Notes under the pieces: generated by a model
Seen by the model: only the letters and a program-made list of their open reading frames with translations
Told to the model about the DNA's origin: nothing
Databases searched by the model: none
NCBI RefSeq assembly: GCF_018350175.1
Contig: NC_058369.1
Coordinates: 806,001 to 870,000, forward strand
Length of the DNA: 64,000 bases
DNA from: Felis catus
Taxonomy: Eukaryota
Direction: 5' to 3'
Translations under genes and position numbers: made by a program
Part shown: positions 55,701-57,655 of the stretch, one piece after another
Layout of the letters: every line of letters starts with the position of its first letter
How positions within the stretch are numbered: position 1 is the stretch's first letter

Positions 55701-57024
55701 GACCGACTGATAACTGGTTGCACCTACGAGGAGACACGGGGCTCAGGGCCATAGTAGGCGTCACCAGGGCGCTGCGGGGGCAGCAGGCCTATCCCGGAGG
55801 GGTCTCTCGTAGGGGCAGCGAGTGTGGCAGCCTGGGTCTGCCAGGCCAGGAGGAGGCCTCCGGTGCCAGGGTCGGCTCGGAGCGCGCCGCCCTGCCCACA
55901 CCCTCTCCTCCCGCAGGAGCCGCCACTCTGCTAAGCCTGTATCTTCTGTTCGGCTTCGGGGCGTCTCTACTGTGCAATGTAATCGGATTTGTGTACCCAG
56001 CATATGCTTCGTGAGTGCCCGCTGGCTGTCCGGGCGTTGGGAGGGGGTGTCGGGGGCTCTGGACAGCCCCTGACTCTGCGCNNNNNNNNNNNNNNNNNNN
56101 NNNNNNNNNNNNNNNNNNNNNNNNNNNNNNNNNNNNNNNNNNNNNNNNNNNNNNNNNNNNNNNNNNNNNNNNNNNNNNNNNNNNNNNNNNNNNNNNNNNN
56201 NNNNNNNNNNNNNNNNNNNNNNNNNNNNNNNNNNNNNTGGGTGGCCCCCGGGACGCACGCAGGTGCCCGGGAGGCCAGGGGTGTGAGGGGGAGACCCGGC
56301 CCCTTCTCTGCGGAACTAGCCCCCCGCCCCCACCAGGGGCGTCTGATGGAGGCGGTCCATCGGGTGGGGGAGGCCTGCCCTGCACGGGTCTTGACACCCC
56401 CCCCCCCCCGTGCCCACAGTGCGCCTTCCTGTTGTTCTGCATGGTTCCCGGGCCCTGGAACGGGGCTCACATGCTGTATCATCGCGCGATACGGCCGCTG
56501 TTTCTAAAGCACCACGAGGCCGTGGACAGCGTCGTGAGAGACCTCGGCGGGAGAGCCCTGGACGTGGCAGTGGGAATAACCCGGGACGGTGTGTGCTCGC
56601 AGGGTGCGGGGGCGTCGGTCCGCCGCAGGCCCTGTCCGTCTGTGCCCCCCACCCGCCTGCCCCTGCCCACTTTCCCTCCTGCCCCTGCCCGGCCCCTGTC
56701 TGGCCTCCGTGTGGCTGCACCCGCTCACTGTCAGCCTCTCTCTCCTACGCTTTCGGGAACCAGTCATGCAGACCCTGGCCCGCGGCCGGGCTCTCGTCAC
56801 CCCCGCCGCTGCCCTTGGAGCCCAGCGTACGTACTCCCGGGCCTGGGCGGCAGGGCCCGCGTGTGCGGGCGCTGTCCCCACGGAGGGTGGGAAGACGGCC
56901 CCGGCCCCGGCCGCCTTGCCCCCGACTGACTCCCTGCGGCCCCGGGGCCGGGCCTGCCTCACCCCCCCACGGCCGTCTCTCTGCAGCCCAAGCAAGCGTG
57001 ACCCAGCCCCAGAAGGACAAGTGA
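52788..57024 (+). CDS. REEP6: Receptor expression-enhancing protein 6 (DP1/Yop1 family)
   Basis: Exons 52788-52902 ([16 protein letters not shown]...), 55917-56010 ([32 protein letters not shown]), [exon 3 presumably in gap 56082-56237], 56420-56588 ([16 protein letters not shown]...), optional exon 56764-56826 ([10 protein letters not shown]...), 56987-57024 ([11 protein letters not shown]). Confidence 0.93.
55040..55225. mobile_element. MER20-like DNA transposon
   Basis: cagtgtctggggacatctgtggttgtc...ggccagggatgctg...tctggccc...gaaaaacc. Confidence 0.65.
55276..55461 (-). mobile_element. CAN-SINE
   Basis: T tail, GAGCCCGACGCGGGGCTCGAACTCAC, truncated head. Confidence 0.85.
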
Positions 57025-57641
57025 AACCCTCGTCCAGCCGCTACGCAGACCTGCCGCCTGGCGAGCTGGGGGGCACATCACACCCCAAGCCCTCCACGAA
57101 CTCCTCGACCGACGCCTCGGGGGAGCCCCCCGCCAGCCCCGCCTCCCCGAGCAAGCCGCTCCCCGGGAGCGCCTCCCAGACCACCTCGGGCCAGTCCCCG
57201 CCGGACCCCCCGGCCGGCGGCTCCCGGCTGCCCTCCAAGTCCCAGAGCCGGCTTCGGCTCCGGGCACGGGCACGAGTGAGCTCCTCCGGCCAGCCGCGCC
57301 CCCAGTCATCTGTCACCTCCTCGGGCCAACCCCAGCCGGCCCCCCAGCCCGCGGGCCCCAAGCAGCGCACCAGCACCTCCCCCAGCCAGGGTCCCCCCGT
57401 GGCGCAGCCCCCCGGGAAGGCCTCGGACGGGCCGGGGGAGCCGGCCCCCCAGGCCTCCAAGGGCAGCCCACCGCCCACCGGCAGCACCTCGGCGCCCCAG
57501 CTGCCGGCCCCCTCCCCGTGCGGGTCCTCGGCCGAGTACACGTCCGAGTCCACCACGGAGGTCACGTGCAGCTGGCCCCACCTCAGACACCGGCTTCGCT
57601 GCCTCCAGCACTGCTGGCGGCTGAAGCATCTGGCCTGCTAG
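56764..57641 (+). CDS. REEP6: Candidate alternative REEP6 C-terminal extension ORF (Ser/Pro-rich, Cys/His/Trp-rich tail)
   Basis: Open from exon 5 through intron 5 and the whole 3' UTR to TAG 57639-57641; codons look G/C-biased at third positions; ends 8 nt before AATAAA. Confidence 0.5.
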
Positions 57642-57649
57642 GGGGGCTC

Positions 57650-57655
57650 AATAAA
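57650..57655 (+). terminator. REEP6: REEP6 polyadenylation signal
   Basis: AATAAA. Confidence 0.8.

Follow-up and report, generated by a model that had tools for sequence, protein, structure and literature searches.

REEP6 of placental mammals probably carries a second, longer coding frame whose mouse product is present in sperm

Our analysis makes it likely that REEP6, a retinitis pigmentosa gene, is dual-coding: a frame of 463–484 residues opens at an ATG at position 52568, and its mouse orthologue occurs in sperm, where it is likely to be a basic, disordered, phosphorylated scaffold. The overprinted gene is real, conserved and translated, its translation having been seen in mouse. Positions are those of the window, the whole stretch of 64,000 nucleotides of Felis catus DNA that was analysed (contig NC_058369.1, positions 806,001 to 870,000 of the forward strand). 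The preliminary description of this DNA had taken an open frame at the 3′ end of the gene for a hidden C-terminal extension of REEP6; in our reading the tail belongs mainly to a distinct protein with an upstream start, of which it forms the 3′ half, since the protein bearing it has no REEP domain (it matches no Pfam family) and mouse sperm peptides cover both its upstream part and the shifted exons.

Results

The long frame at the 3′ end of REEP6

The coordinates first given for exon 5, intron 5, the REEP6 stop codon (TGA, 57022–57024), the stop of the long frame (TAG, 57639–57641) and the AATAAA signal 8 nt further on all proved correct. From an ATG at 56766 the long frame runs for 291 codons, and it is open back to 56580, making 353 codons. 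Stop-free length was dismissed as evidence, being common in such GC-rich DNA: among dinucleotide-sampled controls (n=5000) an equivalent stretch was free of stops in a given frame in 12 % of cases and in some forward frame in 32 %. The claim that its codons look coding-like was borne out by the GC content at codon positions 1, 2 and 3 beyond the TGA (0.65, 0.73 and 0.92, respectively), a significant pattern that was matched by none of 20 000 shuffles; the corresponding values in intron 5 are 0.71, 0.83 and 0.87, with little periodicity. Reads with A tails end at 57665–57668, and the long frame therefore lies within the mRNA. The view that the nominal 3′ UTR is coding and conserved, that a distinct module stands at its end and that the last exon is read in two frames was thus upheld. 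In a contig of run X6 (window position 57663) the poly(A) region is followed by 30 letters foreign to the examined stretch. Two variants in run X24 fall on first codon positions of the long frame and change its amino acids: C is replaced by G at 57090 in 5 of 5 reads, and G by A at 57507 in 9 of 18.

A frame open across the whole gene

Traced upstream with ordinary splicing, this frame stays open over exons 1, 2, 4, 5 and 6 as far as the ATG at 52568, a fourth route to the long frame that was absent from the preliminary description. This ATG stands 220 nt before that of REEP6 (52788) and reads the REEP6 exons in the −1 frame. The features concerned, together with the neighbouring gene, are listed below.

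51618–51812, minus strand: first coding exon of a head-to-head proprotein convertase gene; Pfam S8_pro-domain at the cut-off, E 2e-05
52568–52787, plus strand: upstream ATG of the overprinted protein and the 73 codons that precede the REEP6 start; residues 1–20 form an Arg-rich, Cys-Pro motif
52788–52902, plus strand: exon 1 from the REEP6 ATG; both frames read; mouse peptides in the shifted frame
55917–56010, plus strand: exon 2; both frames read; mouse shifted-frame peptides over the exon 1/2 and 2/3 junctions
56011–56419, plus strand: intron 2, exon 3 and intron 3; exon 3 unreadable here, its 139 nt inferred
56420–56588, plus strand: exon 4; both frames read; exon 4–6 junction in an RNA-like contig
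56764–56826, plus strand: exon 5, a cassette of 63 nt open in both frames; present in cat RefSeq X2, in the shifted frame
56827–56986, plus strand: intron 5, 160 nt; a tandem donor 4 nt downstream, at 56830/56831, would join REEP6 to the tail
56987–57024, plus strand: start of exon 6, with the final REEP6 codons and TGA (57022–57024), overlapped by the shifted frame
57025–57518, plus strand: Ser/Pro/Thr/Gln-rich linker in the nominal 3′ UTR; predicted disordered; variable in length, frame kept
57519–57641, plus strand: terminal module of 40 residues, and TAG; acidic Ser/Thr motif, Trp-Pro and predicted amphipathic helix at about 57585–57635
57650–57668, plus strand: AATAAA and poly(A) site, 24–27 nt past the TAG; 7 A-tailed reads in run X24

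Two ORFs in different frames thus run over the same exons, exon 3 being unreadable in the window and covered only through a cat RefSeq protein. This protein, XP_023098835.2 ('REEP6 isoform X1'), has 463 residues and equals the window translation at every readable position; a length of 139 nt was inferred for exon 3 because it yields exactly that number of residues. Inclusion of exon 5 gives 484 residues, and the length of 464 residues first calculated for retention of intron 5 was confirmed for the same exon 3. In the REEP6 frame, exon 4 has a weak match to Pfam TB2_DP1_HVA22 (E 0.007), which is below the cut-off. The visible REEP6 codons hold 19 positions at risk of a stop in the −1 frame, and no stop occurs at any of them, an outcome expected by chance with a probability of about 0.05 in this one species. 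The terminal module is single-copy in the genome. Two SINE-like insertions, which we take to be of carnivore type, lie at 55280–55470 (intron 1) and 58190–58350 (downstream of the gene).

Several variant structures were also observed. Gene models of cat, bear, sheep, vicuna, mole and tamandua employ an internal acceptor in exon 4, at window position 56510 and 90 nt from the start of the exon; it preserves both frames and removes 30 residues from each protein. Skipping of exon 2 (55917–56010, 94 nt) leads from the shifted frame into the REEP6 frame, and in models from sheep, deer, buffalo, squirrel and bat the new N-terminus is joined to the rest of REEP6; exon 2 skipping may in this way give a third, hybrid product. 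A further ATG at 52443, in the REEP6 frame and 345 nt upstream, is followed by a frame open through exon 1 (153 codons) and could extend the N-terminus of REEP6.

Peptides of the mouse orthologue in sperm

A published study of mouse epididymal sperm of more than 99 % purity was searched with MaxQuant against the full UniProt database at 1 % FDR (PMC11338950). Its supplement lists two proteins under 'Reep6': for the TrEMBL entry D3YTR1 there are 31 unique peptides, covering 59.3 % of the sequence, and for canonical Q9JM62 there are 3, covering 15.4 %; peptide counts do not measure abundance, and all of the peptide evidence comes from this one mouse dataset, in which both proteins are seen to be made. 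Every one of the 68 Reep6 phosphopeptide rows belongs to D3YTR1. These rows hold 45 distinct sequences which, mapped by eye on the long protein of Onychomys and not on the D3YTR1 sequence itself, fall upstream of the REEP6 ATG (2), in the shifted frame of exons 1–6 (24) and in the tail (19, one of them in the terminal module). Peptides span the exon 1/2, 2/3 and 5/6 junctions in the shifted frame, the exon 5/6 junction being the normal one, and five sequences come from exon 5. One peptide, STPVLVPFLLR, is the same in the cat, and another, ICFSQSYREPK, is one residue off the cat sequence. The initiating residue of the overprinted protein is absent among the mouse peptides. The D3YTR1 protein level in cauda sperm is 1.2-fold that in caput sperm; some phosphosites in the basic half drop between caput and cauda, from about 1.3 to 0.7, and S405 rises about twofold. 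The main text of the study never names Reep6. Reasoning from the mouse, we consider it very probable that the cat also makes the overprinted protein.

Other datasets were less informative. The supplement of a second mouse sperm study (PMC7582274) has no Reep6 entry of any kind, and tables for yak testis and boar sperm (PMC11313431, PMC8322956) contain canonical-length REEP6 only, from databases that may lack the long form. A spermatid supplement (PMC12667522) consists of GO lists only. Judging from the accessible parts of the papers concerned, one study was searched against Swiss-Prot, so that the long form could not appear (PMC9321393), another is a profiling of fibroblasts (PMC7067585), and an Iqcn testis preprint places REEP6 among proteins in which some sites go up and others down. 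A liver table, made with a database built from liver ribosome profiling, has one row for the gene, with four peptides in the REEP6 frame (PMC9823216).

Orthologues and selection on the shifted frame

A search with the last 62 residues gave 23 matches among 30 candidates, mammalian where named; most of the matching proteins do not start with REEP6, and many start with the Arg-rich, Cys-Pro motif. Profile searches returned 57 matches from 8000 scored candidates and 56 from 1.84 billion representatives; a rodent query gave 46. The named carriers comprise carnivores, pangolin, ruminants, whales, a camelid, bats, mole, shrew, monkeys, tree shrew, squirrels, cricetids, elephant, dugong, elephant shrew and tamandua, and orthologues are therewith found in all four placental superorders (Laurasiatheria, Euarchontoglires, Afrotheria and Xenarthra). 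No match named as Homo, Mus or Rattus appeared in these protein searches. The younger frame is taxonomically restricted, as judged by word-based searches in which some matches are unnamed: tail carriers with names are placental mammals throughout, and the frame has no Pfam family. In a set of 149 proteins, in which isoforms and close relatives are counted and entries are not independent, the shifted frame is unbroken over exons 2–4 plus the tail in 52, and the N-terminal motif is present in 57, at 54–78 residues ahead of the REEP6 ATG. The younger frame has a conserved start codon of its own, as indicated by the ATG at 52568, the motif that follows it and the mouse peptides upstream of the REEP6 ATG.

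Frame keeping was tested directly because databases display only open frames. Of 29 orthologue tails chosen, two were dropped for want of an anchor; the remaining 27 all aligned to the window DNA without a frameshift, with 1–11 in-frame gaps each. Frequent frameshifts in orthologues, which the preliminary description had named as evidence that would count against a coding frame, are accordingly found in none of them. In a neutral simulation with rates and indel lengths set by the analyst, 4–9 % of the evolved copies remained open, and of 45 such copies, the controls being conditioned on an open frame, none aligned without a frameshift. Set against these controls, the frame-preserving tails argue that the younger frame has probably been kept by selection.

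Mean identity to the cat is 0.97 over residues 1–20 (97 % in 18 non-felid rows), 0.52 in the 5′ linker, 0.59–0.83 in the shared exons, 0.40 in the tail linker and 0.70 over the last 40 residues (26 rows); the alignment used for these regional values (A3) includes one chimeric gene model, P0145, with slight effect. No substitution-level constraint is visible in the linker at 40 % identity. The near-invariant first 20 codons coincide with promoter motifs, and their conservation may be at the level of DNA. Independent in-frame tandem expansions of the tail linker were observed in vicuna, marmot and bats (P0019, P0022, P0023, P0048), the protein reaching up to 650 residues. Some distant REEP/YOP1 gene predictions (P0123, P0132, P0135, P0136) slip into an open −1 frame for 50–100 codons, which suggests that this frame may already have been stop-poor before the overprint arose.

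These observations bear on the possibility that the frame is a chance ORF in GC-rich DNA, annotated for being the longest, with conserved ends that are really promoter and polyadenylation elements. Such a reading would draw on the commonness of stop-free stretches, the partial open −1 frames of the distant predictions and the overlap of the N-terminal motif with promoter boxes. Frame-preserving indels, codon periodicity and the 31 unique sperm peptides all stand against it; the peptides have already largely refuted it, and we find it hardly credible. A second possibility is that the long frame is a regulatory overlapping upstream ORF that silences REEP6 translation in spermatids, its protein being a tolerated by-product. 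Repression by an upstream ATG that is out of frame and overlaps the main start is well established, and the near-neutral identity at which the linker drifts would also suit a dispensable product. A repressor, however, would have no need of 200 further codons beyond the stop of REEP6 or of a conserved module at their end; cauda sperm still contain the protein, at 1.2 times its caput level, and the same sperm contain canonical REEP6. We therefore regard this explanation as highly improbable.

Fused REEP6–tail products

The preliminary description had proposed that REEP6 reaches the tail by retention of intron 5, by a donor 4 nt downstream of the usual one in exon 5 (56830/56831) or by an acceptor at 57006/57007. 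All three routes lead into the frame in silico, but only the donor found support elsewhere. Three Peromyscus RefSeq X1 models have full REEP6 joined to the tail with two extra residues at the exon 5/6 border, and their junction, as deduced from the protein sequence, fits a 4-nt extension of exon 5 from a donor 4 nt downstream. Among four cat-labelled runs neither the 56830 nor the 57007 junction was listed, and the acceptor was rejected on this ground; coverage of exon 5 was little or nil and its inclusion unseen, making the read check a weak test. The only joint listed in these runs is that of exon 4 to exon 6, in a contig of depth 2406; the contig in which introns 4 and 5 are left unspliced has a depth of 182. 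Retention of intron 5 was likewise rejected, as the contigs with intron 5 also hold intron 4 and give no evidence of retention. Runs had been ranked by whether they contain intron 5, and of those that contain it none is on record as RNA. A few intronic reads in run X24 (window 56505–57034) have a mate orientation opposite to that of the exon 6 reads, as would be seen if they derived from DNA or from antisense transcription running on out of the tail-to-tail neighbour.

We considered whether the selected product might be such a fused long isoform, with the REEP6 membrane domain and the tail on one chain, arising through the +4 donor, another acceptor or retention of intron 5. Besides the Peromyscus models and the presence of the tandem donor in the cat window, this reading can point to RNA-like contigs that contain intron 5 and to 19 of the 149 proteins whose sequence opens in the REEP6 frame and closes with the tail; in 7 of these the REEP6 motif of exon 4 is preserved. 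The 19 fused models, however, switch frame at many differing places, the junction is unlisted in the four runs, and the contigs with intron 5 retain intron 4 too, the REEP6 frame there stopping at about 56927. No fusion could yield 26 of the 45 mouse peptide sequences, which come from before the REEP6 ATG or from the shifted frame of its exons. The long proteins of cat, Onychomys and Cebus match no Pfam family, so that no TB2/DP1 domain was found on the same chain as the tail in any of them; domain and tail occur together only in the Peromyscus fused model. We judge a fused isoform very unlikely as the selected product, and rather unlikely, if conceivable, as a minor by-product; the junction peptide of a fused form is unlikely to have been in the sperm search database.

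Properties of the overprinted protein

The preferred product, the separate overprinted protein, has a mass of 48 kDa, a pI of 11.6 and no Pfam family, and no transmembrane segment was found in it (best 19-residue hydropathy, 1.28). AlphaFold gives a low-confidence model (mean pLDDT 42) with disorder throughout, the tail linker scoring below 50. The sole modelled helix comprises residues 446–462 and appears amphipathic, with a hydrophobic moment of 0.30–0.46 in six orthologues. Counted from the end of the protein in 31 orthologues, Trp is kept at position −8 in 30, His at −4 in 30 and Leu at −3 in all 31; a Cys/His set, in which His at −10 and Cys at −9 are each kept in 27 and His at −4 in 30, has no Pfam match and is modelled as one helix. 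The last residue is Cys in 25, Tyr in 5 and Leu in 1, and the position four from the end, where a CaaX box would have Cys, is the His kept in 30 of 31. With the terminal Cys kept in only 25 of 31 orthologues and no CaaX box, the lipidated C-terminal anchor that had been proposed is unlikely as a conserved feature. The ESM Atlas gave a best score of 0.86 to REEP clusters, with TM below 0.3; the match was rejected as real homology, a shifted frame over a real gene being able to give such a score.

Promoter and neighbouring gene

The first coding exon of the convertase gene is 756 nt from the upstream ATG at 52568. We take this head-to-head neighbour to be PCSK4, which is expressed in germ cells. 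A PDB sequence search with the convertase exon returned one chance match only. The upstream ATG lies between two groups of CCAAT and GC boxes, with CCAAT at 52330, 52427, 52458 and 52487 upstream and more boxes downstream, and the head-to-head arrangement suggests a shared germ-cell promoter.

Discussion

Our current working hypothesis, which we hold to be reasonably likely on the basis of promoter motifs, is that the choice of frame is set by the start of transcription. With CCAAT and GC boxes on either side of the upstream ATG, transcription in somatic cells would begin 3′ of 52568 and yield REEP6; in germ cells it would begin 5′ of this position, at the promoter common to REEP6 and the convertase gene, and yield the long protein. 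The stop of the long frame is in the last exon, and its transcript should therefore escape nonsense-mediated decay, as transcripts of this kind are expected to do. The persistence of the product in mature sperm, together with its charge, cysteines and phosphorylation, points to a structural scaffold role. More tentatively, and with somewhat less than even confidence, we suggest that it might be held in a sperm structure by the terminal amphipathic helix and the cysteines, and that its phosphate pattern might be reset in epididymal transit.

The existence of the overprinted protein affects how the Reep6 knockout is understood. The accessible part of Veleri (2017; PMC5458339) describes a knockout in which exons 2–4 were replaced and males were sterile. 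Since the deleted exons encode both proteins, this sterility is not assignable to REEP6 alone, and loss of the overprinted protein may account for the male sterility that is now blamed on loss of REEP6. The two proteins can be separated by altering the single codon of the upstream ATG, or by a stop that is silent in REEP6, which makes the question directly testable. Knockout sperm were reportedly the subject of a study by Devlin in 2020. An annulus location has been reported, according to a remark in the accessible part of a review. Should the frame prove open in humans, REEP6 variants classed as 'synonymous' or 'UTR' could be coding.

Databases mislabel the long protein as a REEP6 isoform, and its sperm peptides are for that reason read as REEP6; in PMC11338950 these misread peptides make up 68 of 6341 phosphopeptide rows. 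The RefSeq entries 'REEP6 isoform X1' of the cat and other mammals are likewise filed as REEP6 isoforms, yet share no in-frame residue with it. A literature search, to which subscription papers were outside reach, turned up no account of the long frame as a real protein, and 'D3YTR1' is absent from the main texts searched. The ORF itself is not new, having been annotated and, in 2013, named as overprinted; as a sperm protein it has apparently gone unrecognised.

That earlier recognition is due to Neme & Tautz (2013; PMC3616865), who list mouse Reep6 (ENSMUSP00000100994) as overprinted, with a new start codon in exon 1 that opens a second frame over the ancestral one; ENSMUSP00000100994 and D3YTR1 are likely to be the same ORF. 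In its accessible part their work is based on annotation and phylostratigraphy, assigns the frame a boreoeutherian origin and mentions no protein evidence, tissue or tail. In contrast, the orthologues in elephant, dugong and tamandua reported here place the frame in the placental ancestor, and the sperm peptides show its translation.

Among REEP proteins, REEP1–4 have long cytosolic tails. The ER-shaping REEP/DP1/Yop1 proteins (Pfam PF03134) share the locus with the overprinted frame, and the Peromyscus fused models would resemble a long-tailed REEP. Unlike this family, the main long product has neither a TB2/DP1 domain nor a transmembrane segment.

Mammalian dual-coding genes include the one encoding POLGARF, which resembles REEP6 in specifying two unrelated proteins in shifted frames, the younger of them basic and disordered. 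The same likeness extends, according to the accessible parts of the papers concerned, to CDKN2A (p16/ARF) and GNAS (XLalphas/ALEX), both cited in PMC3616865, and to altFUS (170 aa; PMC7788448), altPIDD1 (PMC11557682) and AltSLC35A4 (PMC12183330). Unlike in those genes, the older coding sequence of REEP6 is nested entirely in the younger, longer one, which spans all six exons as well as a cassette exon and reaches 73 codons further 5′ and 205 codons further 3′ than the older. The overprinting appears unusually complete, an old gene lying whole inside a younger and longer one.
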